A stretch of 57,219 nucleotides of DNA, filler included, from Porpidia crustulata (GCA_964255105.1; 4 parts of 4 records of this genome joined end to end with filler, not necessarily neighbours in it); one strand, 5' to 3'. Counted from the first letter of the whole stretch, positions 11,062 through 43,858 are shown. The notes: a model not told the origin generated them from the sequence alone. A program made the numbers and translations.

Positions 11062-12777
11062 ATGCCTTCTCCTGGCAATCTTGCAATCACGAAGATCATT
11101 GTCAAAGCACTAATCACAGCAACAACTGTGATGACAGCCGATATTGTCTCTCTGGTAATATTTCATCACACTAACAACGACACTGACACAAAGGTGCACG
11201 AGCAGCGAATCAGGGACCAGAGCAGCAGACCGGTTCGTTAAATATATGCCTTTGGGAACGAGATGTCCTCCTGACTACTTCGTGCTGTCGGCTAATTCAA
11301 ATATCCAGTACCTCGAAGAGTCAAAGTCCCCTAGCGTGGAATCCCATCCAGGTCTGGAGAGCCTCACAATTTTGCGGTGTACTATCGACATTCCGAAGTA
11401 AGTCTCCGTGTCCTTTTCTTTTGTGTCAGTATCAAGGGTGTTGTCGCATTCACGGCACCGCTTCTTGCATCGACAACAGAAATCTGTTTTTCCATTTCAG
11501 ACTTTTGTCATTTCGAATGAAGGTTGTGATATTGGGAAATTGTAACCCTCATTGCTCCTGCCTCCCCAATTGAGAACAATAAGGTCGACATTAGTAAATC
11601 TCATGTACTTTTTCTTGAAGACCATTTTCTACACATCGAATTCCTCCCCTCGAGATTTATTGAGACTGATTGAAATCCTCTAGCTCTTAATATAGCCGAC
11701 CAGCTAAGTGGCGTTCCTAATCTGATGGAAACCGAAGAACTGTCGATCGCTCTGTCGCCTCAGATGCGCCTGCTAGTGGATCAGAACTTCCACCAAGCTC
11801 TGGAGAACATCAACACGATCCATGGTCCACTTCGGCTTGTCGACAAGTCGAAAGCCAATCGTCTAGCCAAGATCAGTTACGACTTAGCTCAATTGCACAA
11901 AGAAGCCCATCGAGACGAGCTGCTATCGCCGTTGGAATCTACAGAGACTGACTCCCAATTGGATGGATCGTCAAACCCTGCTAAGCAGCAAGATATTCAG
12001 GAGAAGAAATCAGAGAAGCCGACGTGGGCAAAGATTGCGGCACCAAAGACAGGCGAATTGGAAGGAAAGCGGATCTCCATCGCTTCAGAACACGCTAAGC
12101 AAAGGAGAAGCGAGAGCATGTACATGGGTAGACCGGAGAATTCTGCTGTAAATGAGAACGAAGATGATCAGCAGCGTGTTGTAAATGTCTACGGGCTTGA
12201 CATTAGAACAAGTCTCAAAGACATAAGCCGCGCAATAGTTGAGGGACCATTGATGAGCCTCAAAATATCTACGAACCCAGACAGCACAAAATCCGCAGCC
12301 ATCGTGTTTTTAGAAGCAGCTCATGCAAAACAATTTATTGCTAGAAATGATGCTCTGCACGTGGTGAATAAACACGGATCGGGACTTTATGGACCACACG
12401 CCCAGGTGGTCCTTGGACACCCATACCACGATGACGAAGTATTCCATTATATGCGTGGCCGTGATGTACTACGACGGCGCTTGACCATCAGTGGCAAAGG
12501 ACTCTTTAACAGCGTGCAGCCGATTAAATTCTATCTTGACCTTGCCAGCGTCGTCGGAAAGGAGCAGCTAGAGCTGGTGTGGCTGTTCAACAAAGGCAAT
12601 GGCACCATTGTACTCAGTGGAGTACGAGAGGCGGTGAACTTAGCACTGTGGCTGAGGACCAAGGCGAGCGGAGATGGCCCCTACCACGGCGCCGACGTTC
12701 AATTCAGCCATGACTTTTGTGAACTGCGAGTTCCCCTCACCTCACAGATACCGGGCGGGGGCGAGGTGAAGATTTAG
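11062..12777 (+). CDS. Fungal protein with two degenerate RRM-like domains; probable upstream coding exons from 11062
   Basis: Core ORF 11725..12777 (RVVNVYGL..., SAAIVFLEAAHAKQF, RRRLTI, ELVWLFNKGNGTIV, VQFSHDFCE). Four predicted introns upstream keep an open frame from ATG 11062; the 5' end is uncertain. Confidence 0.6.
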
Positions 12778-13896
12778 ATTGCGAGGATGAAATACCGTGA
12801 AATGATGTCGATGGTCTTGATCCGCGAAAGGGACAAGGGGTCAGCATTGAATTGAACATTTCGGAAAGTCTCGAGATTTCTTTTAGTCGTGGAATCAGGA
12901 CGCGTTAATGTGGTTGCGTATCGATCTACTCGAAGTCTGGTCTCTAGTTTATCTAATTGGTATAGTGGGGATCGGTATTAGGTGTTGGAGAATACACAGA
13001 CTTTCGGCCAATGCCATTGTGGACGGCCTTTCTGTTCTCTGGAGCCCTTTGATGTTTGTATATCTCCTTTCTAAGACTAGCGCAGCGGAAGTATCTACCC
13101 CTGCTCATTGACGATCAAACGTCGACCTCCAGACAATATCCGACATCCCACGCACTTAATCAACAGAACGTTTTAGTTTATCCATGTGTCTCGATTGCTG
13201 CCCGAGAGCATATTTCTGCTAGAAATTGGTCGACAGTTTTTGACATACATCGCTCTATACATCACTTGCTGATCGAACGACATCTTGCACATTGAGAATT
13301 GCGGACTCGTGTCTTTCGGAGCTGATCTCTTCCTCCATCCTTCTATCAAATCCGAACCCGTCGTGTTACTTCCAGGGTGGAGATCTCTCCGAGCCGCAAC
13401 TCTTCAAATCTCTGATAAAACAATGTTTATTTTCTTGTACAGGGTGCGGTTCAAACAGACTTTGTTTCACGTGCAGATTTTACGGATGAGCAGCCCTAAT
13501 TGTTATGCTTTCCACTTCTCATTGGCTCGCGACAGGCGGGAAGAGCAAAACGTGCGCTTGTAGAGACCGAGGACGCTCAAGAAATTTCTTAATGTCTAGA
13601 CACCTCGTGTCAAGCGTCAATTGCCTCAGATCTCCACCTACCTACCCGTCCGTCCTATCAACTGTCTCATTAAAATCTCCGTCCCGCCCTCCACATCCCT
13701 GGACCATGAAGAAGAAACAGGATCTTTCGACCCGTCATGAAACGTTTCTCTATGGAGAACAGGCCCACTGGGCTGCTTGGCTATGATCCTTCAGTTGCGC
13801 GTCTCTTCCTCCGCCTCAAGCCCTATAAACGAGGCTTGCCCCCATTTCCACTGCATATGCACACATAATTTAGGTCTGTCCACGGTCGTTGTATCA

Positions 13897-14253
13897 ATGT
13901 TATTTTCTGTCGTTTCCCTTGTCGTCCTTCTCGCCGCTGGCGGCGAAGCAAAACCTTGCGTTAAACGTGGCAACGGCACCACTATCAGCGACGGCCTTGG
14001 CAACAGACCCATCCACATTGTCCCCGCGACGAGCGGACCGGTCGGATCCAATGTCCAACCAGGGCCGTCAGGCAAATGCCCCGCCGCCTTCCTCAATGTC
14101 GTCTTCAACACGGGCGCGGCCAAGACCTCGGGCTGGCCCAACAAGATCTGGGATTCCCTCGCCAGTAACAAAGTCTCCAACTGGATCGGCTTCTCCGTTA
14201 AACCCCTCTCGCAAAACCAGCACTACAACACCGACGCCGGCCCCGCCCCCTCC
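13897..14253 (+). CDS. Secreted protein, N-terminal fragment truncated by gap; function not determined
   Basis: Signal peptide MLFSVVSLVVLLAAGGEA followed by a KR Kex2-like site; TATAAA ~70 nt upstream; frame open into the N run. Confidence 0.65.
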
Positions 14254-14353
14254 NNNNNNNNNNNNNNNNNNNNNNNNNNNNNNNNNNNNNNNNNNNNTTA
14301 ATTAATTAANNNNNNNNNNNNNNNNNNNNNNNNNNNNNNNNNNNNNNNNNNNN
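14254..14353. other. Artificial contig spacer
   Basis: 44 N + TTAATTAATTAA (stops in all six frames) + 44 N. Confidence 0.98.
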
Positions 14354-15070
14354 TTGTAGGGGGTCGGGGGGTTGTTGAGGCCGTTTTCTTTGTCTTTGCG
14401 CTTTCTGTGCTCTGCGAACTCTTCGAGGATGTCGGCGCGCGTTGGCTGGCTTCCCCGGAAGCGCGGGGGTTTGGGGCCGGAGTCTTCGGCTTTCAGGCCC
14501 ATGCGCGAGCGCACCTTGGATTCTCGTGCGCCACCGGCATTGCCTGCTCTGGTCTGTGGGCGTCTGCTGGCTCCGGACGGAGGTGGGCGGTTGTTTTTGT
14601 TTTTGGCGCTGGGTTGGTGTCGGTGCTGGATTGAGGGGCGCTCGGGATCTCTGGCGATGACTTCTCGGAGAGATGTTTGCTGGCCGGATTGAACTTTGCG
14701 TGGGGTGGACGTTGGGCGGGGCGCTGCGAGGCTGCGAGCGTCGATAGGGGAGCGACCGTCGCCGCTGTTGCGGTGGATCATGAATTGGGGTTTGGCTTGA
14801 TCGGAGAGGGACTGGGTAGCTTGCGTTATGGATTCATTACGGATTTGGCGAGGGCGCTTTGATGGAGCTTATGTACCACATGTGAGCTTGGGATTCTTGA
14901 TCGAGGATGAGGGTACATAGGAGGGATTGAATACCTTGGGTGTCTCCGTCTGCGAAGCTCTTGGCGGAGATGTGGAACGCGCGAAGGCAGATGGCATTAT
15001 TCTCCAGTCGAGGCAGTATGCCAGAAGGCCTGCCTCTACCCAGAGCAGAGTGAACATGTAATTTGTGCAT
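14354..15070 (-). CDS. Probable mitochondrial protein, 5' part, truncated by gap
   Basis: ATG 15070 with presequence-like MHKLHVHSALGRGRPS...CLRAFHISAKS. Intron 14934-14868 (GTATTC...AAG) joins it in frame to the Arg-rich ORF 14302..14781. Confidence 0.65.
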
Positions 15071-15355
15071 GTTCTATATTGGTCCTGGCAGTTGGAAGTG
15101 TTTAGACAGGCACAAAAACTAACTTCAGGATTCTCGGATGGCGGTACTTGCCGATGCTTGAACACTCACAAGGGGGAGATAAAGTCATTGTAAAACTTTG
15201 ATAGCACATCCATATAGATTACTCTAATGACATATCACACCCCCTGTGATTGGTGCAACCGTACCCTCTCTAAATCCGTCCAAAGCTCACCAAAACCAAC
15301 ATCTTCGACTCCCACACTCCCCCCACATCTCCCCCACAACCTACAAATCTCCATC

Positions 15356-15592
15356 ATGCTTCGTCGTAAGCCCACCGCCATAACCGTCACCTCCGAAGAT
15401 GTCGCCGCCTTCGATGATGAACGCTCACGCAGATATCAGGAAGAAAACAGACGTGTCGATAGCCCCAAGCACGAGGACCCAAAGAAAGCCGCCGTGGACC
15501 CGAATGATGAGTTGAAGCCTTTGCCGAGTGATAGAACGAGGGCTGTGAGGACGATGCCGACGAGAGACGAGAGGATTGGGCTGGGTAGATGA
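15356..15592 (+). CDS. CDC26: Anaphase-promoting complex subunit Cdc26
   Basis: Diagnostic N-terminus MLRRKPTAITVTSEDVAAF; 78 aa; divergent from the neighbouring gene. Confidence 0.85.
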   Translation: MLRRKPTAITVTSEDVAAFDDERSRRYQEENRRVDSPKHEDPKKAAVDPNDELKPLPSDRTRAVRTMPTRDERIGLGR

Positions 15593-16149
15593 GGCTGGGG
15601 TGTGACTTTAATTTACTTCTATTTACGTCACGGTTGGGGTACAGTGTTACACTATACTGGAGGGTGGTTAATCATCGGGGATTGGATAAGATTACAACAT
15701 TGATCTGAACAAATTTGGTATGTTGCAGTAGAGGCGGAAATTATGCCTCTGTTCCTATTAACATTGTAATTCTGCCCCTGCCCAAGCCCATCATTCGGGA
15801 AACGCCTGATAAATCAAGTATGCCGCTAATTCGCTATCAGAAAAGACAGTATGAAGGAGCATGAATCCTGAACCACCATCTCATTATCGGAAATTCTTGC
15901 TCGCTCCCAAGGTACCCGCTAATACAGTACCGACGCTCGCTGAACTGCTATGCATCAAAGGAGTGACATTTCACCTTACAACGTCAAATACTGTGGAGAA
16001 CATTATGACGAAAGGACTTGTGTATTTGCTGGTCGTTCAAAAGCGCTGCGACGGCCAGAACGGTTGTCTGACGATCTCGATCCATTGACTTTATTCAAGG
16101 CCAAGTGCACGGTATCCCACTTATATTACGTCCGAGAGTGGGCGCAAGC

Positions 16150-28602: not shown

Positions 28603-28702
28603 NNNNNNNNNNNNNNNNNNNNNNNNNNNNNNNNNNNNNNNNNNNNTTAATTAATTAANNNNNNNNNNNNNNNNNNNNNNNNNNNNNNNNNNNNNNNNNN
28701 NN
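28603..28702. other. Artificial contig spacer
   Basis: N44-TTAATTAATTAA-N44. Confidence 0.98.
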
Positions 28703-35447: not shown

Positions 35448-37279
35448 TTGTACAGAAAGTCAGCATTCAATGGACAATATTTCAACTCACAGCCGCAAAG
35501 CCCAGTCTACGGCAACATCCCAGATCTCTACCGCCAGCGGGTTTTACAGGACTCGGCAAGAATTTTTAAAGATGACCAAGGTAGCGTTGACTTGATATCA
35601 TGGCCCAAGAATGCCAAAGGAAGCTTGATCCTGTCTTACCCTCGCCTAGCAAGTAATAATAGCAGGCAGATTTGATTCGACTATCAGTGTTGATTCTGCA
35701 GCGTCCCTAATTTCATGTAATCAGGTACGTGGTGTCGTGACAGTGGCTCCTCATCTCAATTATGTGTGACTCATTATGCAACGCAGCGCCTGCAAAACGT
35801 GGAGAGAAACTTTCTACAGTAGGCTCTCAATTCTTAGATGTCAAGTTTTCGGTCCCAAGAAAGGCTTTCAGCATCATCAAGCAGAAATATACATGGGACA
35901 ACCTGTTTATCACCAGAGATTTATTGTTCAACCTCCTACATATGACTCGTGTTTTCTTCCCGTTTCTGGATTGTGTTCAAGCTTTTGTTTTCCGTAATAA
36001 CGACGACGATGAGGTCTGGGAGGGTTGCCATCGAGCTTGTAATTGGGACCCCAGCTCCTGAGAGCTTCAAATTGGCTATTTCAAATGCTGACTGCTTTGT
36101 GTTTAGCACAGAGATTGCCTACACGTTTCGGTATGTGGATACCAACGGTCGGACAGAAGGCTCTCCGTGGTCTATTCGGCAAACGGCCGTTTATCAGAAG
36201 ATCAACTTGAAGACTGGCTGCTCAATATGGATTCTGATCCAGCCCAACGATGCAGTATTAGAACGATTCAAGGCGTTGTGTCTTCAGTCAGTAGACGGTG
36301 CGGGTCACCCAATGGCACCGCATCTCACCTTTCTGAGCTCTGCTCGCGTCCATTGGAAGGCTTATATTGGTCAACTGCGGCTGTCTCTCCAGAAATTGGT
36401 CAGTGGCCGAACGTTAACCAAAGATTACTCTTATACGACGAGACGATACTTAAACAATAATTACTCCAGAATGAGAAGGCCTGCTTCTCCCGAGTCGGCA
36501 AAGCACAGCCAGGGGACTACAAAGTCTCTTTCTCCGATGGTCAGCAACTTCAAAAGATTTGTCATAAGCTGGGTCGATCAATGCTCATGCTCGGAGGAAT
36601 TCTAGCAATCATCAACAGCTGCAAGTCCCATTGCGCAGATGTTGAACGGGCCGATTTATGTCGTCGGGAACATACCATACGTCTTGAGTCAAGTCAGCTT
36701 ATCAACTACTTCACCTACTGTAAAATTGTTATACGTAATCTCATAGAGTCTGCAACTGGGACGGCCGGTCTTGTAAGCGGGCCGAGTTGATCTATTATTC
36801 AATCAAAACGCAGACTCAATATTATCTTAGCTCAAGCAGATTTGCGACTTCTACATGACAGACGAGCTCAGACGCAGCAGCAAAACCCTGGGGGCCAGTA
36901 TGATTGCGCTAGAAAATATCGCGGCGGCAACACGTACCGATAATGGCGATATGCTGCAATTGGCAAGGCATAATCGTGAAAATACGATCAACTTGAAGAC
37001 TTTAACACGCATTACGATTGTATACCTTCCTGCATCTCTCATCGCGGTAAAGTCTAACGTACGGATTTTATCAGACGCTTCTGTTTACTGAAATTGCTGC
37101 AGACTATATTCAGCTCCAACCTTATTAGTTCTGAGCCACTGGGTGCGGCCCACCAACCCACTCGATTTATGATTAGTCCGCAATTCTGGATCTATGTCGT
37201 AGTCACGCTTGGATGTACGGCTCTGACACTAGGTGTACCTATTATATTGGAGCGGAGGCGTGGGCGCAGATGCCCGTGA
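35448..37279 (+). pseudogene. Fungal CorA-like transmembrane protein, multi-exon, 5' end apparently degraded
   Basis: Spliced product contains YTWDNLFIT, VFFPFLDCVQAF, EIAYTFRYVDTNGR, PWSIRQTAVYQK, WILIQP, SFSDGQQL and C-terminal TMs TRITIVYLPASLIA|TIFSSN...FWIYVVVTL. No in-frame ATG before 35448; first donor reads GAAGCT (35620). Confidence 0.7.
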
Positions 37280-37450
37280 AATTGTCTTACACCGACCAAA
37301 AGAAAGTATTCCGTGAATTGTCATTGAGCTAGATTCTAAGCATTAAAATAGCAATAGAGCCGACAGTTTGAAAAACAGTAACATCAACTCAATCATAACA
37401 TATGATCCAATTCCCTGGAGGAGTCTTCTTGCTTCAGTCGCCTCCATAAC

Positions 37451-37719
37451 TTAGGCTGATCTCACTGACTGGATTTCATCCTTTCAGGTTTTTAGCAGCT
37501 AGCAGACATGGTCAATGGCAAAACTCGCCTGAGTGAGGCCTCTCGGTAGAGACAAGATATAGTGCTCTCCAGTGTCCTGCCTCTCGTCATTAGACTAGCG
37601 ACGAATCTTCATCTGATGGCGCTTGTCTCCACAAAGAAGGTCCCATTTACAAACAGCCTAGCCAGTAGGGAGAAAAGCCTCTGCTTGTCGACGTATCTTT
37701 GCTCAAGGACTTGGTCCAT
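37451..37719 (-). CDS. 56-aa spliced microprotein (3 exons); intron-1 donor is non-canonical or mutated
   Basis: Exons 37719-37627, 37576-37529 and 37480-37451 give MDQVLEQRYVDKQRLFSLLARLFVNGTFFVE-DTGEHYILSLPRGLTQ-DEIQSVRSA*. Introns of 50 and 48 nt have CTAA branch points and AG acceptors; donors are ACAAGC and GCGAGT. Confidence 0.65.
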
Positions 37720-37983
37720 TGTCAAATTATAAGTCTTCAATTTGGACGGTAGACTAGACGTACAGAATTTTACCAAGTAGCTGAGTATTAATAATAATCG
37801 CAAACATCCATCGATTGCGGGGTGTTGGCCCTGTCTTGTTAAAAATAGATTCAGTTGCCTGATTATCGCTTGGCGAGACTGTTACCAACAGGTGGTACGT
37901 CTCTTTGTTTCCTCTCAGCCTTGCCATAATCGCACACTTCGACTTCAAAACTTGGCGGAGATGATCCGTAGACGCCGCGGAGG

Positions 37984-40978
37984 ATGGATGTAACACGCCG
38001 GAAGATCAGAGAGGCCCGCTGCCGAAATGCCGATGGAAGATGGTTCGTCCCTGAAGGATCGCTGGCGTCGGTGCTTCCTCCTGAGATCATACAGCAGTCG
38101 CTCCAGAACCATTGCGACGTCGAACCCTTTGCAGTCCAGTGGATGACGCAGGCTATCGAAAAGGGTGGTAGGAGGACCTTCGCAGCATTGATCTTAATTA
38201 GGGAAGAGAAGAAGATCATTGCTGTTTTGGAACATTACTTGCAATCTGACAGCCAAAAGCTCGACTCTCGGCTGCCATTTTCCAGGTTAGAGTTAGAAAC
38301 GATCCTTTCTCCGGATGTGGCCAGCGAATTTCATGAGCATCAGTGGGAACTCATAGCCCCAGTCTTCACTCATCGACTTCATCACCACAATATCCCCATT
38401 GAATTCAATCTTCCTTTCATCGAGTCCCGAAGGATTGGAGGTGGAGGATTTGGGGACGTTTATGAGGTTGTTATCACAGCAGGCCACCACAAATTCAAAA
38501 ATATAGACAACACCAAAGTATAGTCAGCCTTTGTTATCCTTCTGGAAACAATGGACCTAATAATCATCAGCCTGCTCGATTGGTTCGAAAAGAGCTCCGC
38601 GAAGGCTTTGGGGCTGACGACTTGTGGGCTGAAGTGGGATCTAACGAGCATCAAGTCATGTCTTATATGTATCACTTGGAGCATCCCAACATTCTGCCAC
38701 TTTTGACATCGTACACATATAACGGGATCCACAACTTCCTACTACCTCTCGCCGAGGGAGGGGACCTGGAGTACCTGATGAATGAAAGAACTAGAGCCAG
38801 AGAACTTTCCCAAGACATGCAATTCTACGACGCAATATCTGGACTGGCTTCAGGGCTCGAAACTCTACACGAGTACAAATCCGACATCCTTGGCAGGGAA
38901 ATGATCGGATACCATCACGACCTTAAGCTGAAGAACGTGCTGGTGTCTCAAGGCCGTTTCATTCTCTCAGACTTCGGGCTTTCGAAGCTAAAGACAGGCG
39001 AAAATTCTCGGACTCCTTTCAAAAAGGGGCAGGGCCATTATTTGGCCCCTGAATGTGAGGATCTGGAGCATGGTTTTGTCAAGGGAATAGTCAGTAGAGC
39101 GAGCGATGCCTGGTCATTGGGTTGCATTTTACTTGAAGTGATCATCTTTATGGCTGGAGGAAGCGATTCTCTTGCACAGTTTCGACAATCTCGCTCGATT
39201 ACAAAGGGCCTCCTAACGACAAGGACCTTTTTTTACGAAGATGTTATCAACCCGGGGGTAGAGAATAAGTTGATCGAATTGGCTGATTGTGGAGATAAAT
39301 GTATCGAAAGATCAGTGGCGTTGATTCGCCAGATTCTGGTAGTTAAACTCGAAAACCGACTGAAGGCGAGTGAGATTGCGGTAGGGTTTAGACTCATTTC
39401 TTTCGAAGCTTGCTACCTGAGTTTATCTACAGCTCTTGAATCTATTAGGTGGCGAGTTGAGAACCCAGAAACTATCGCGGAATGGAACAGATTTCGCCAA
39501 CTGGCCCATACTCTTACTTCAAGCGACGACACGACGGTGGTTGGTACCCCCGATACGACAATTTCAAATTTTTTTGCAGATCGTTCTCAAGTTAAATCAC
39601 TTCTGGAGTCCATTAAAAGACTGTTCGACTACATCGTAGATTTAGACCTATCAGACGACTTTACAACGGCAATATCGTCGGACTTAAAAAAGTCAACAAC
39701 TTTCTAGACCTGGAACTCAACCACAATCGAAGAGAACGTAATTCAATATCTCATGTGGAGGCTGATTCGGGCGATATTACCCATGAGACTGTCGAGTCTG
39801 AGCACGTGAGAGAACTGAATTGGAGTGAGCCTACTTTGACGGTACCGACGGCCAATGTGCGTAATGCCACTATATCGAAAGACGAGAGGTTTCTTACCGT
39901 GGAGTATAATCGGCAAATCACGATCTATGCTTTACCTTCAGGCGACGAAGTCCGAGCAATCAGAATACCGGACGAGTTGCAACCGGCTCAAAGGGAATGG
40001 GTTCGTAAATACCCCCAATTCGCCTTTTCGCCTAACGGAAAGAATCTTATTGTCTGTTGGACTAGACACGTGTGTTCTTATAAGATAGACAGCGATGGGA
40101 GCGAGTTTGTAATACTTTTCCCACCATTTATCGGTGAAAGCAATTATGGTCACATCGGTCGTTCCGAAAGTATGATGAGACCGATAGTTACTGGAGTGGC
40201 GGCGATTTCTGCAGACTCGAGATGTGTGGCTTTCGGTGTTACAAGACGTTTCTCTACGTTATCTGACGCATTCGAGGAGTTGATATTTATTCTCTTCCTC
40301 ACGAGAAATGGAGTGGCTGATGGACCACCAATTTGGGTCACCGTGGGGGATTATGATTGCGTAGCTGGATTTTCTCCGGACATTCGCTAGCTGGCAATTG
40401 GTAGTTAAAGATTAGTTCGGCATAATTGACAGAATGCCACTCGTATCCGGTTGTTGAACCTTCTTGGGAATGGCACTGATCTGAAATGGGCTACGATCTA
40501 TTGCAACGAAAAATTCGACAAAGGCCCACGCAGACCATGGATGGAGCCGTTCGACGCGATGGTCAGATATCCACGCCTGGCGTTTGCAGTCTGGGAGAGC
40601 CGCTGGGTGGCAGCACTATGGGAGAAGTCCAAACGAACCTTGACCTTGCACGACCTACACTCTCAGAGCCATCTAGCATCATTCGACCTTTTCCGTTACG
40701 ATCCATTCGGCTCCGGCATCGAAAAGACTATATTTTCTGCCGATTTGAAAATCACGGCAAGCCTGAGAGCTCCTGCCGGAACTATCCTGGAGAAGTTCGG
40801 TTTGGGGAAGGAGAGGGCAACGGGTAACGAGGTCGCGTTTCTGGATGTGAAAACGGGCCAGATCATCTGCACTTTGAAAAGGGCATACTTTGATGAATAC
40901 TGGCTTTCAGACTCGGGACATTATGCCGTGACACGAAAGAAGAGAGAGTTGAGGGTTTTTCATATTGTAGAAATTTGA
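37984..40978 (+). pseudogene. Ser/Thr protein kinase with N-terminal helical domain and C-terminal WD40-like region; C-terminal half disrupted
   Basis: IGGGGFGDVY, intron 38518-38570, LVRKEL, HPNILPLL, HHDLKLKNVL, SDFGLS, YLAPE, SDAWSLG. Frameshift at the A6 run 39686-39691. WD-like motifs FAFSPNGKNL, ISADSRCVAF and GFSPDIR. In-frame stops at 40388, 40406 and 40427. Confidence 0.8.
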
Positions 40979-41231
40979 TGTCATGCCGAACGATCTCAAA
41001 TTACGCAGGCGCGTGTCTTTCGAGCCATTGTCGGCCTAATTATTGGTTGTGAGCCTGTAACAGAAGTAGATAAATAGCTAAACATTCAATAAACCCATCT
41101 ATTACCAGTAAAATAATAAGTATAGATTGAATTTAATGAAGCTCGAGTTCCACTCTGGATAAGTTAAAAAAACCAACTCGTACAATTTGATAAAAATATA
41201 GTTCCAATAGGAACGCAGTATTATGGAATAG

Positions 41232-41318
41232 GCCTGGCTAGCTCAATCAGGTAGAGCGTGAGACTCTTATCTAAACACGTACATCTTAAGGTTGCGGGTT
41301 CGATCCCCGCGTTGGGCT
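41232..41318 (+). tRNA. tRNA-Lys(CTT) with a 13-nt intron
   Basis: Acceptor GCCTGGC/GTTGGGC, D arm GCTCAATCAGGTAGAGC, anticodon CTT 41266-41268, intron 41270-41282, T loop GGTTCGATCCC; oligo-T Pol III terminator at ~41330-41337. Confidence 0.9.
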
Positions 41319-42320
41319 TCCTTATTGTGTTTTTTTTCGCTCAAGATTCGACAGAATCTGCAGTGTAGGTACATACCAGATTTGGCTTGTCTGATTTCCA
41401 AAAGGAATTTGTACTTAATGGAAGGGAACCTACTATCGATATACCACCTTTTGGTTACTCATACCTACATCCCCGATACAAAGTTTAGATCTAGGGTTAT
41501 AAACCTATTTCTTACCAGAGCACTTCCCCAGCATATATCTTCTAGCAACTACACGCCGTACTATTTCGATCCCAAAATTGCTTTCTATGATCGGAGTATC
41601 TCTCATTCAAAGGCCTTGCGCAGTCCGCCTAGAAGGTATACTTGCCTCCCCAGGAGTCCCACGCCGCCGCCGCTCCCGTTCTCCTTCCTTCCACTTCTGT
41701 CACTACTACCAACCCGCTCCTACTTTCCCTACCCCGCCCTCGTTCCTAGCTGTTGTTGCTTTTGTCCTGCTAATGGCTCATGGTCATTGTCTTTTTTGTG
41801 TTTATTGGTGATGGTGGTGGAGGTGTGGTGGTGGAAGGATGGTGGTGGAAGGGAAGGAGGGATGGAGGTGGGTAAGAGGATGGAAGGTAGTTGCTTGATT
41901 GGGAAGCGATTTGGTGAGGGATAAGATAGGTTTATGACTTTAGAATCAAACTTCATTCTGGGGGGCAGTGGGTGTACGGGTAGGCAAATGGGATGTAACG
42001 CTGGTAAGTAAGGTACCTAAAAGACGAGATAGAATAACTAGGATATTTCAGGACTTACCTACTATACGAGGTAAAAAAGGCCAAGGTACCTGATACTAGC
42101 CTTGCATGTGTAGGAAAGAACGATGGAATGTCATCGCTTCGCATTCTTTGCTATTTGCTCTGGGTCTCGAAAATTACGTAGCTGCTTCTTCTCTACGGAG
42201 TCTACATAGTACCGGAGGCAGGTGCCCACGATTAGAGGACAGTAGCGACTGCCAAATGAAGTGAACTACTACGGTATTTAACCCAGTTCCTGTTGCCCAT
42301 TCTCTCTCTCTCTCTTTTAT

Positions 42321-42937
42321 TTCCCCATCTTACTCCATCAAAATTAGATCAAGAATATCATGCGATACAACATGATAGCAGCACTTATTATTTCTTTGAC
42401 ATTACTAATTGTGTCTGTCGTAGCCTTAGCTGCGACAAAGCCCATCTCTTGGGTATGGGAGAGATGCCTCTCAGGGAAACCAACCTTAGACCCAGCTGTT
42501 TCCCCATAATTCAATCCACAAAAATCCATCACATTCAATCGAAATGATTGCTTCCGTCATACTCCCGCTTGTCTCACTCATCATATCGATCCTAGCATTA
42601 GTCACAACGAAGCCCATATCTTGAGTATGGGAGAGGTGCCTCCCCGAACATCCAGCCCCAAACCAGTCGATACTCGAAACGCTTCAAAGATGTGAAGAGC
42701 GACTCGCCAAATCTCGAGCAATTATAGCCTTGGCTACAACAAGGCTCATCGCCTGGGCCTAGGACCGCTACCTACCAGGTAAGACGACCATGGACCCAGC
42801 TGTTTCCCCCATCTTACTTCCCTGAAATTAGTTGAAGAATATCACGCAATACAACATGATAGCAGCATTTATTCCTTCTTTGACATCAATTATGATGTCT
42901 ATCGTAGCGTTGGCTACGACCCGTCCGATCGCTTGGC
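42321..42937 (+). repeat. Imperfect tandem repeat array (4 units) encoding short hydrophobic peptides
   Basis: 42321-~42440 is nearly duplicated at ~42805-42937. AAGCCCAT.TCTTG.GTATGGGAGAG.TGCCTC occurs at ~42438 and ~42610; GACCCAGCTGTTTCCCC at 42489 and 42793. Confidence 0.8.
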
Positions 42938-43037
42938 NNNNNNNNNNNNNNNNNNNNNNNNNNNNNNNNNNNNNNNNNNNNTTAATTAATTAANNNNNNN
43001 NNNNNNNNNNNNNNNNNNNNNNNNNNNNNNNNNNNNN
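42938..43037. other. Artificial contig spacer
   Basis: N44-TTAATTAATTAA-N44. Confidence 0.98.
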
Positions 43038-43858
43038 GTGGGGGAGGTGGAGTGGAGGTGTGGGCATTGGATCTGGAGAGCTACGGCAGCGTGGCGGGGT
43101 TCGCGGAGAGGGTGAAGGGGACGCAGGGGTTGAGGGTTAATTTTGCGATGTTGAACGCCGGGGTGGTGAGGCCGAGATTCGAGCGGAACGGGGAGACGGG
43201 GCATGAGGTGACGGTGCGGACGAATTGGTTGAGCACGGCGCTGTTGGCGGTGTTGCTGGTGCCGGTGCTGCAGGCGCAGTATGAGGCTGCGGGAAGGGGT
43301 GGTGCGGCGCCGGTGCTGACGCTGGTTGGGAGCGAGGTTGCGCAGTGGGCAAAGATGAAGGAGGGGAAGAAGGCGGTGGGGTTGCGGAAGAGTGTGCTGG
43401 AGACGCTGGACGATGAGAAGAATTTCGACCCGTCCGATTGGTATTACGCGTCCAAGTTGTTGCTACTGTTCTTGTTTCGGGAGTTCACGGAGCGTCTCGA
43501 AACTCCTGGGATACGAGGCTCGTCAAATAACGTCGTCGTCAACAACGTCAACCCGGGCTTTTGCTACGGCTCAGAGCTGCACCGCGACGTTGATGGAGTA
43601 TTCGGCGCCGTCCTTGGGGTTGTGAAGAGGATCATGGGAAGATCTACTCCGTTGGGGGCGAGAACGCTGGCGCATGCCGCTGTGGTGGCTTCGGTTGAGT
43701 CGCATGGGAAATATCTTAGTGATGAGAAGATCACCGCGTTTGCGGATTATCCGTTGACCGCGGAAGGGAAGGCGATGCAGAAGCAGCTATGGGAGGAGAT
43801 GGCGAGGGAGCTGAAGAAGGTTGTTGATATTGAACGTATGACGAGGAGGAAGATCTAG
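43038..43858 (+). CDS. Short-chain dehydrogenase/reductase (retinol-dehydrogenase-like), 5' truncated by gap
   Basis: VEVWALDLESYGSV, LNAGV, catalytic YYASK, VNPGFC and GARTL; the Rossmann TGxxxGxG motif lies in the missing part. Confidence 0.9.

Follow-up and report, generated by a model that had tools for sequence, protein, structure and literature searches.

Between positions 35470 and 40978 of a window of 57,219 nucleotides from Porpidia crustulata (GCA_964255105.1; the window is the whole stretch of DNA that was analysed), three genes lie where the initial annotation had put them: a CorA-like membrane-protein gene (+), a microprotein gene (-) and a gene for a kinase with a propeller-type tail (+) (Table 1). 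The spacings given there also hold, with 264 nt separating microprotein and kinase head to head and 171 nt between the stops of the microprotein and CorA-like genes, which stand tail to tail; at another locus, L002, microprotein and kinase are likewise head to head, with a gap of 273 nt. The CorA-like gene runs from an ATG at 35470 to a TGA at 37277-37279 in five exons (about 35470-35645, about 35838-36398, 36470-36775, 36831-37046 and about 37103-37279). The microprotein is read from an ATG at 37719 to a stop at 37451-37453 through exons of 31, 16 and 9 codons (37627-37719, 37529-37576 and 37451-37480, respectively), and the kinase gene from an ATG at 37984, across an intron at 38518-38570, to 40978. 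The cassette is compact and is flanked by housekeeping genes.

Table 1 Genes, gene parts and lesions of the locus, in window coordinates
Feature	Position	Strand	Basis
CorA-like membrane-protein gene (PF26616 family)	35470..37279	+	tblastn of P0121; family HMM matches five ORF pieces
1-nt deletion, CorA-like codon 3	35474..35475	+	Extra T in X2 gives M-D-E-Y, as in P0121
1-nt deletion, CorA-like exon 1	35620..35621	+	Extra A in X2, X6 and X7; with the A, the frame fits P0121
Frameshifting loss of 40 nt between direct repeats of 6 nt, CorA-like exon 2	36048..36053	+	X2, X6 and X7
Microprotein gene, 56 codons plus stop, three exons	37451..37719	-	Coordinates read from sequence
Divergent intergenic region, microprotein ATG to kinase ATG, 264 nt	37720..37983	.	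Read from sequence
Kinase exon 1: helical N-domain (residues 1-125, part SAM-like) and start of N-lobe	37984..38517	+	AlphaFold2 model
Catalytic domain and helical linker, encoded in first part of kinase exon 2	38571..39690	+	Pkinase score; alignment to P0001/P0002
Loss of one base at or next to A6 run, shifting kinase frame	39686..39691	+	P0001/P0002 alignment moves from frame 3 to frame 2
Kinase tail: helix and 7-bladed WD40-type beta-propeller, out of frame, interrupted	39692..40978	+	P0001 tail; L001 model
Three in-frame stops within 42 nt of kinase tail (TAG 40388, TAA 40406, TGA 40427)	40388..40429	+

Domain content of the encoded proteins

The membrane protein was assigned to PF26616 through its orthologue P0121 from Cladonia borealis (489 aa; precomputed domain, also present in Atlas clusters), which is 68-88% identical to the window over in-frame segments. 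Built from 40 members of the family, a profile found seven CorA chains (E 6e-5 to 1e-4), the match falling at profile positions 397-474, a region that covers the CorA TM1-TM2 hairpin and corresponds to a stretch in window exons 4-5. The family thus shares a C-terminal two-helix membrane hairpin with the CorA/Mrs2/Alr1 Mg2+ channels (PF01544; Thermotoga maritima CorA, 4eeb and 2iub), its profile L-T-I-I-A-T-x-Y-L-P...N aligning with CorA TM1-loop-TM2 (E 6e-5). Unlike these channels, it has a cytoplasmic domain that forms an Ascomycota-only family of its own (PF26616), it is encoded in a cluster with a kinase gene and a microprotein gene, and the GMN motif, which ends TM1 and defines Mg2+ selectivity, is replaced by S-S-N at the aligned position (F-S-S-N-L) in both the family consensus and the window. 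The separate window exons gave no Pfam match to PF01544, and its cut-off of 27 bits was missed by P0121 (15.8 bits) and by the intronless homologue at L002 (26.2 bits); the Atlas model of P0121 reaches a TM-score of 0.51-0.60 to clusters carrying PF01544. The original label of CorA-like is therefore upheld by PF26616 membership and the membrane-hairpin match, and not by PF01544, which falls just below its cut-off. At E<=0.001 this large family numbers 1175 representatives.

The kinase scores 71.7 bits against Pkinase (PF00069; cut-off 31.7) and, aligned to the homologues P0001 and P0002, carries H-H-D-L-K-x-K-N, D-F-G and A-P-E and is of the non-RD type. In alignment A1 the HHD, N, DFG and APE residues do not vary among the 23 sequences, and the kinase looks active; the window has L after the K where 23 of 23 relatives have P. 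The N-terminal domain lies in a region conserved in relatives and is modelled by AlphaFold2 at pLDDT 90.3, with no match in Pfam or Foldseek (best E 0.3). Approximately residues 59-126 bear a weak likeness to the SAM domain of Tric1, on which 60 residues superpose at rmsd 1.8 A with a VIA-align Z of 5.8, below the level at which caution is advised for helical folds; this is the highest Z of a list headed by SAM domains, which make up about half of the best 50 VIA-align matches listed, with no SAM match by sequence in Pfam; the HeLo/HELL four-helix bundle is absent from those best 50.

The window's kinase tail is 71% identical to that of P0001, and because it is broken, its fold was modelled on the homologue at locus L001. 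That model (466 aa, pLDDT 74.5) has about 28 strands in a seven-bladed propeller, and Foldseek matched it to at least 500 PDB entries (E<=0.001), headed by the WD40 domain of PkwA, G-beta and a 7-bladed designer propeller. In Pfam, the window tail pieces gave no match to WD40 (PF00400) and P0001 stayed sub-threshold (WD40 23.7 bits versus 27, PD40 16.5 versus 20.9), while single PD40 repeats in P0006 (25.3 bits) and in P0025 (30.2 bits) exceed that PD40 cut-off. The WD40 tail named in the initial annotation thus stands at the level of fold, on the model of the L001 homologue, and not at the level of Pfam scores. PkwA, a Ser/Thr kinase of Thermomonospora curvata with a WD40 tail (PDB 5yzv), follows the same two-domain logic, and its WD40 domain is the best match of the L001 tail model (E 8e-13, 18% identity; a likeness of fold only), but it has no N-terminal helical domain. 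RHIM, HeLo/4HB and NOD domains were not found in the window's three genes, a HET domain (PF06985) is absent from the window ORFs, and NACHT or NB-ARC was not found by Pfam in the window pieces, seven homologues or 58 neighbouring ORFs.

Lesions in the Porpidia copy

Alignments and relatives' contigs bear out the initial claim that all three genes are damaged. For the CorA-like gene, the reference was P0121 together with contigs of the relatives X2, X6 and X7 (about 91% nucleotide identity), which have the undeleted form at the gene's three frameshifting deletions; at the first, the indel table has coverage from X2 alone, and a loose end of X6 reads an intact start. At the third, X2, X6 and X7 have 34 additional letters plus the repeated 6, encoding P0121 residues absent from the window. 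The gene is a pseudogene or, at best, could yield an N-terminally truncated product from an ATG at 36008. Both splice donors of the microprotein gene are altered: intron 1 begins with AC, against GT in 11 of 12 relatives, and intron 2 with GC, against GT in all 11 relatives. The clustered stops in the kinase tail are of the C>T type and replace W/Q, Q and R, respectively, in P0001/P0002. A contig built from a public run, which may be the window's own source, is identical to the window at depth 11, and so the lesions are not artefacts of this particular assembly. The window kinase deviates at 6 of 148 conserved columns, compared with 0-11 in intact relatives, and the best reading of the sequence is that decay of this copy was recent.

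The three genes recur as neighbours across rearranged loci

The initial annotation had named, as the outcome that would speak against a joint role, homologues found together no more often than by chance; the opposite was observed, with homologues recurring as immediate neighbours. The sample was drawn with the kinase alignment alone and comprised 80 metagenome loci in 55 non-redundant groups; the CorA-like HMM matches 35 of the loci (22 of the groups), in five groups through the C-terminal membrane part only. In these 22 groups the CorA-like gene lies less than 3 kb from the kinase in 19 (220 kb of flank), at 3-6 kb in three and at 6-10 kb in none (125 kb), a proximity that departs from uniform spread (binomial P = 1e-4) under an internal control, namely distance within the flanks of kinase-anchored loci. 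Where at least 3 kb of flank was available on both sides, the CorA-like gene is present in 13 of 21 groups and absent in 8.

Microprotein exon 1 was recovered by jackhmmer in 23 of the 80 loci (12 of 55 groups), always adjoining a kinase or a CorA-like gene, and a set of 21,853 ORFs contained it at no other place; the other 43 groups gave no microprotein, many of them having short flanks or distant kinases. All three genes occur together in 11 groups, the three-exon microprotein layout is common to relatives, and gene order and orientation vary from locus to locus. Across loci of differing arrangement, the three genes sit side by side much more frequently than position by itself would lead one to expect. 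The kinases of these recurring neighbours are 25-55% identical to that of the window, and the cassette turns out to occur in many distantly related ascomycetes, with kinases down to about 25% identity. Kinase and CorA-like identities are correlated over 18 gene pairs from 17 loci and the window (Spearman rho 0.52, a value reached by none of 2000 permutations), a mirror-tree signal that can also come from shared species history. The trio had been read as one functional unit in joint decay, and both parts of that reading gain support because the three genes recur together across rearranged, diverged loci and because kinase and CorA-like divergence are correlated.

The kinases differ in the modules that they carry. 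A DUF7580 pseudokinase replaces the propeller tail in many relatives, giving a kinase-pseudokinase tandem form (as in L002, L008 and L013) where the window has a WD40-type tail, and the DUF7580 tail profile matches kinase and MLKL pseudokinase chains (E 2e-4 to 5e-3). A second kinase with TPR repeats lies beside the CorA-like gene in four groups, and a HET domain is fused to a related kinase in L073 (E 3e-12) and P0084. Such swapping of WD40, pseudokinase, TPR and HET modules is characteristic of fungal sensor-effector clusters, and the HET fusion, the TPR-tailed kinases and the MLKL-like pseudokinase tail lend indirect support to an immune or cell-death context.

Candidate roles of the cassette and related systems

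Fungi encode stress, immune and cell-death switches in clusters of two or three genes. We consider it probable that this locus preserves, in recently decayed form, a three-gene cassette that is conserved in filamentous ascomycetes; no earlier account of such a set of kinase, microprotein and CorA-like protein was found in the literature searched. Its likeliest role would be that of a conditional switch in stress, immunity or cell death. The first component of the cassette would be a Ser/Thr kinase whose helical N-domain resembles SAM in part and is followed by a non-RD catalytic domain of active appearance and by a C-terminal module that changes between relatives; the second, a soluble microprotein some 55-65 residues long, with its coding sequence split over three exons; and the third, a member of the CorA superfamily in which two helices form a membrane hairpin and SSN takes the place of GMN. 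The kinase may act as the sensor, with its variable tail as input, and the CorA-like protein as the membrane output through ion flux or permeabilisation, while the microprotein could be the kinase's substrate, adaptor or brake. On the best reading, the sensor kinase would govern a pore derived from CorA, with the microprotein as intermediary or as co-actor, and this lichen-type fungus would have lost the unit as a whole. The mechanism put forward in the initial annotation, loosely modelled on RIPK-MLKL, in which the kinase would sense, the microprotein adapt or inhibit and the CorA-like protein form a death pore, stands as a hypothesis.

An alternative is that the cassette is real and serves ion homeostasis, the kinase and small regulator tuning a CorA-derived transporter of Mg2+, Co2+, Zn2+ or a similar cation in answer to a nutrient or stress signal, with no tie to immunity or cell death. 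The CorA superfamily consists mainly of divalent-cation channels, the hairpin matches Mg2+/Co2+ CorA structures, the N of GMN is retained and the window's three genes carry no known death domain, all of which this reading would accommodate. We nonetheless consider it unlikely because the Mg2+-selectivity motif reads SSN, because the swapped WD40, pseudokinase and TPR tails and the one HET fusion are typical of fungal non-self sensors and not of nutrient regulators, and because the entire unit was dispensable enough to decay in the window. Still less probable is a selfish poison-antidote or killer element, with the membrane protein as toxin, the microprotein as antidote and the kinase as switch, whose spread through drive and subsequent decay would explain patchy presence and pseudogenes. 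A compact unit between housekeeping genes, decayed in all three genes here and intact in relatives, the contigs of which diverge from the window downstream of 41030 (loose ends), would suit such an element, but no terminal repeats or transposon genes were found flanking the cassette, which is old, widely diverged (kinases to about 25% identity) and co-divergent, a pattern no less compatible with vertical persistence. That the genes are three unrelated, intact neighbours by descent or chance, with lesions that are sequencing errors, is highly improbable: X2, X6 and X7 may share the arrangement simply through their identity of about 91%, and one lesion falls in a homopolymer (A6, 39686-39691), but the adjacency recurs with kinases only 25-55% identical and in differing gene orders, three lesions are substitutions to stops and one is a 40-nt deletion, and an independent contig build of the run holding the stretch is identical at depth 11.

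A stronger form of the switch reading, which we regard as possible but doubtful, is that the cassette represents a widespread, undescribed innate-immunity or regulated-cell-death system of Pezizomycotina, in which sensor kinases with exchangeable modules (WD40, TPR, pseudokinase or HET) open a CorA-derived pore via the microprotein, and which was discarded here as one unit. If true, fungi would have an equivalent of RIPK3-MLKL, plant tandem-kinase/NLR pairs and the CRISPR-CorA effector of bacteria. RIPK3-MLKL and the fungal HeLo/HELL executioners likewise place a kinase upstream of a membrane-acting executioner (PMC12881547), and the second, dead kinase domain of relatives' kinases (DUF7580) matches the MLKL pseudokinase; unlike those systems, the cassette has an effector of the integral CorA type, and no RHIM, amyloid motif or four-helix-bundle/HeLo domain was found in it. 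No shared amyloid motif linking the cassette genes was found. Fungal NLR-effector and gasdermin-protease clusters (PMC12881547, PMC9815663) resemble the cassette in their two or three genes, WD40/TPR sensors, HET fusions, patchy presence and decaying copies, but the kinases examined here have no NACHT or NB-ARC, and the effector family is new to such a context. Plant systems genetically pair a kinase-pseudokinase sensor with a separate executor at membranes, in another kingdom and with an NLR as partner where the cassette has a CorA-like protein (bioRxiv 10.1101/2024.08.30.610185,.610287). The CorA-family membrane effector of type III CRISPR, which is bacterial and is reported to be activated by SAM-AMP, relies on a nucleotide messenger and no microprotein where the cassette has a kinase; the likeness, at superfamily level, lies in a CorA-derived membrane protein as the output of a sensor-coupled defence, encoded beside its sensor (PMC10600005, PMC12255297).

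A three-gene cassette and its surroundings in the window

The window is fungal DNA in which housekeeping genes occupy both flanks, with TAF2, SAS4, CDC26, proline dehydrogenase and HSP70 upstream (up to 27.8 kb) and a pericentrin-like protein and SGT1 downstream (from 47.5 kb). The trio consists of gene A (CorA-like protein), gene B (microprotein) and gene C (kinase). Its existence, proposed in the initial annotation together with spacings of about 265 and 170 nt, was upheld, the intervals being 264 nt between genes B and C and 171 nt between genes B and A. The best named relative for any of the three genes is a Cladonia borealis protein of 489 aa (P0121), titled 'CorA-like transporter domain-containing protein' and assigned to PF26616, to which gene A is 68–88% identical across its in-frame segments. 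Gene C shares 81–82% identity in the kinase and 70–71% in the tail with two 776-residue open frames (P0001 and P0002), and the nearest named kinase relatives come from lichen-forming and xylarialean ascomycetes. No flanking repeats were found around the trio, and a search of 28–47.5 kb for relics of kinases with TPR repeats or other neighbours found none. Paired runs of 44 N, 12 bases apart, occur at 14254–14353, 28603–28702 and 42938–43037, the last of these directly preceding an SDR-like open frame.

Features of the window and of metagenome loci (L-numbers) retrieved with the kinase
Feature	Position	Strand	Basis or remark
Three-gene trio	35470-40978	A +, B -, C +	Sequence and relatives
Gene A, CorA-like	Stop TGA 37277-37279	+	Five exons, by alignment to P0121
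Gene B, microprotein	ATG 37719, end 37451	-	Exons of 31, 16 and 9 codons, by comparison with relatives
Gene C, kinase	ATG 37984, 53-nt intron 38518-38570, end 40978	+	Pkinase, 71.7 bits
Open frame, 746 codons	30103-32343	-	DUF7924 (E 4e-11); lies before the trio, as the second large gene in the stretch that lacks housekeeping genes
Odd tRNA-like element	41231-41321	+	ARAGORN; two-base 'anticodon'; about 250 nt 3' of the kinase
Diverged direct repeats	42320-42900		85-97 nt, 66-81% identity; short open frames with similar peptides inside
SDR-like open frame	43040-43858		
Second TPR-tailed kinase	L002:13156-16463		Adjoins CorA-like gene
Second TPR-tailed kinase	L006:5328-8735		Adjoins CorA-like gene
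Second TPR-tailed kinase	L008:2334-5397 and 12738-15748		Adjoins CorA-like gene
Second TPR-tailed kinase	L013:2086-5031		Adjoins CorA-like gene
Stand-alone DUF7580 open frame	L008:17060-17881		Follows the cassette by a few kb

Co-occurrence of the three genes across kinase-anchored loci

Loci were sampled as DNA around kinase relatives only, giving 80 metagenome loci that were merged at an identity of at least 90% into 55 groups. A CorA-like HMM, derived from 80 full-length family representatives, matched 35 loci belonging to 22 groups, and the CorA-like gene lay less than 3 kb from the kinase in 19 of these 22 groups, 3–6 kb away in three and 6–10 kb away in none, the last zone contributing 125 kb to a total flank of 480 kb (P = 1e-4 against a uniform spread). 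In L002 and L006, two of the three distant cases, a second kinase gene sits between the first kinase and the CorA-like gene. Where at least 3 kb of flank was available on both sides (n = 21 groups), the CorA-like gene was present in 13 and absent in 8.

The microprotein frame was revealed by tblastx of the window's intergenic DNA in four loci (L001, L002, L005 and L080), and jackhmmer started from the window's first exon retrieved it in 23 of the 80 loci (12 of the 55 groups). In every case it adjoined the kinase or the CorA-like gene, and a set of 21,853 ORFs yielded no match at any other place. Of the 12 relatives shown, 11 had a recognisable exon 2 and 7 a recognisable exon 3, with spacings from the ATG that agreed. 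Layouts differ between loci: microprotein and kinase stand head to head in the window, L002, L018 and L023; in L005, L008, L013 and L076 the microprotein precedes the kinase in tandem; in L051 and L073 it lies downstream of the kinase; and in L001, L006 and L080 it precedes the CorA-like gene. All three genes occur together in 11 groups, and the identities of neighbouring kinase and CorA-like proteins correlate (rho = 0.52, 153 pairs, 0 of 2,000 permutations as high), a correlation to which shared species history can contribute. The earlier suggestion that the trio acts as one unit is supported by the test it had set itself, namely whether homologues occur together in other genomes more often than chance.

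Homology of the microprotein beyond the studied loci was not detected by a word-index search, by Pfam searches with exon 1 from eight loci or by an Atlas search at scores above 0.85. The three-exon gene has been missed by gene callers, and the single annotated trace found is a kinase model from Apiospora aurea (P0074, 791 aa) that starts with the microprotein's first exon, a fusion most likely produced when a gene caller merged two neighbouring genes. Apart from this merged model, no amyloid-style signalling motif was found that the microprotein has in common with either the kinase or the CorA-like protein.

Constant and variable parts of the cassette and their possible roles

All 23 kinase sequences compared keep the motifs HHD...N, DFG and APE without change, so the kinase, although non-RD, looks like an active enzyme. 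Its first 125 residues are modelled as an N-domain of eight helices (pLDDT 90.3), for which Foldseek returned no match; SAM domains topped the VIA-align list (Z 5.8, rmsd 1.8 Å, 60 residues), which we treat as a lead only. The tail, modelled on the homologue from L001, consists of a helix and, after it, a WD40-type propeller of seven blades; PkwA, a bacterial kinase, supplies the best match with its WD40 domain, and Pfam repeat matches in the tails fall mostly under threshold. More distant relatives carry DUF7580 as the kinase tail. DUF7580 has degenerate catalytic motifs, and its profile aligns with C-lobes of kinases and with pseudokinase chains of MLKL (E 2e-4 to 5e-3), which makes these proteins kinase–pseudokinase tandems. 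In four groups, a second kinase with TPR_10/TPR_12 repeats lies beside the CorA-like gene, giving a four-gene version of the cassette. HET is fused to the kinase in L073 and in P0084.

The N-domain, kinase, microprotein and CorA-like protein would be the constant parts of the cassette, and variation would be confined to the tail of the kinase or to the additional TPR-kinase, a division that matches the expectation for a variable sensor input driving a fixed output. In such an arrangement, the kinase would both sense and switch, the CorA-like protein would provide the output at the membrane, and the microprotein would be a substrate, an adaptor or a brake. On the basis of tail swapping and HET fusion, we favour a switch that acts conditionally in immunity, stress or cell death, with plain ion homeostasis as a serious rival. 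The CorA-like family itself is large (1,175 representatives), Ascomycota-only in the Atlas and matches the CorA membrane hairpin (E 6e-5), with SSN where GMN is expected. A complex prediction pairing its N-domain (P0121 residues 1–340) with the kinase N-domain scored 0.00, which we take as no verdict.

Fungal regulated cell death is now explained by a few sensor–executioner pairs, in which NLRs act with HeLo/HELL and proteases with gasdermin, alongside HET and patatin systems. A kinase-driven system with a CorA-type output would add an executioner family and a sensor logic without a NOD domain, and would connect three kingdoms in using kinases or CorA-type proteins for immunity. The cassette offers a testable function for the PF26616 family, for DUF7580 and for the microprotein, and is small enough for direct co-expression. 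Analogies are drawn with the CorA-family effector of type III CRISPR systems (PMC10600005, PMC12255297) and with plant tandem kinases (two bioRxiv preprints). Within the full-text literature searched, which leaves most subscription journals outside, we found no account of fungal gene clusters that combine a CorA-like protein with a kinase, passages of a 2025 review (PMC12881547) included, and no paper containing 'DUF7580', 'PF24476' or 'PF26616'.

Lesions and recent decay of the window copy

Collinear contigs of close relatives from three runs (X2, X6 and X7; ~91% identity) cover the stretch, X2 in a single 5.9-kb contig. Relative to these and to P0121, gene A lacks a base after 35474 (codon 3), for which indel coverage comes from X2 only and a loose end of X6 shows an intact start, one base at 35620, and 40 bases at 36048–36053 between 6-nt repeats. 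An ATG at 36008, in the post-deletion frame, begins a reading frame that takes in every CorA-like exon still to come, and a truncated product of ~390 residues that lacks the N-terminus could be made from it.

Gene C has a frame change within the A-run at 39686–39691 and three stops (TAG 40388, TAA 40406 and TGA 40427), each one C>T away from the relatives' codons (W/Q, Q and R, respectively). The stops span 14 codons (42 nt), the remaining ~1,000 kinase codons hold no such stop, and all three fall within an in-frame 72-nt GT..AG segment (40361–40432). Intronisation of this segment is a possible reading; the frameshift upstream of it already puts the tail out of action. In gene B, the intron-1 donor is AC (GT in 11 of 12 relatives) and the intron-2 donor GC (GT in 11 of 11); splicing from a cryptic GTGGAG donor that lies 6 nt upstream would preserve the frame, so that of the three genes B is the one whose death is least certain.

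A run containing every sampled word of the stretch, possibly its source, yields an identical contig at a depth of 11. With lesions left out, the window kinase differs from 6 of 148 conserved columns, compared with 0–11 in close intact relatives; the kinase is thus barely degraded apart from its lesions. Decay is therefore recent, and the window copy represents a conserved cassette that has died only lately. Repeat-induced point mutation is not indicated as the cause of decay: between the window and X2, transitions in the two directions are almost equal in number (A>G 100 and T>C 85 versus C>T 79 and G>A 66), G+C content resembles that of the flanks, and a clear signal is absent.

Among the indels listed, the X2 and X7 contigs have single-base gaps of their own in the kinase frame at window positions 39038, 40262 and 40338, and the kinase may be decaying independently in these lineages too, although further gaps may compensate for these. 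In both contigs, the last 10 kinase codons and the next 30 nt (40948–41030) are replaced by 94 other letters and resemblance to the window is lost past 41030, which places a breakpoint where the cassette ends on its 3' side.
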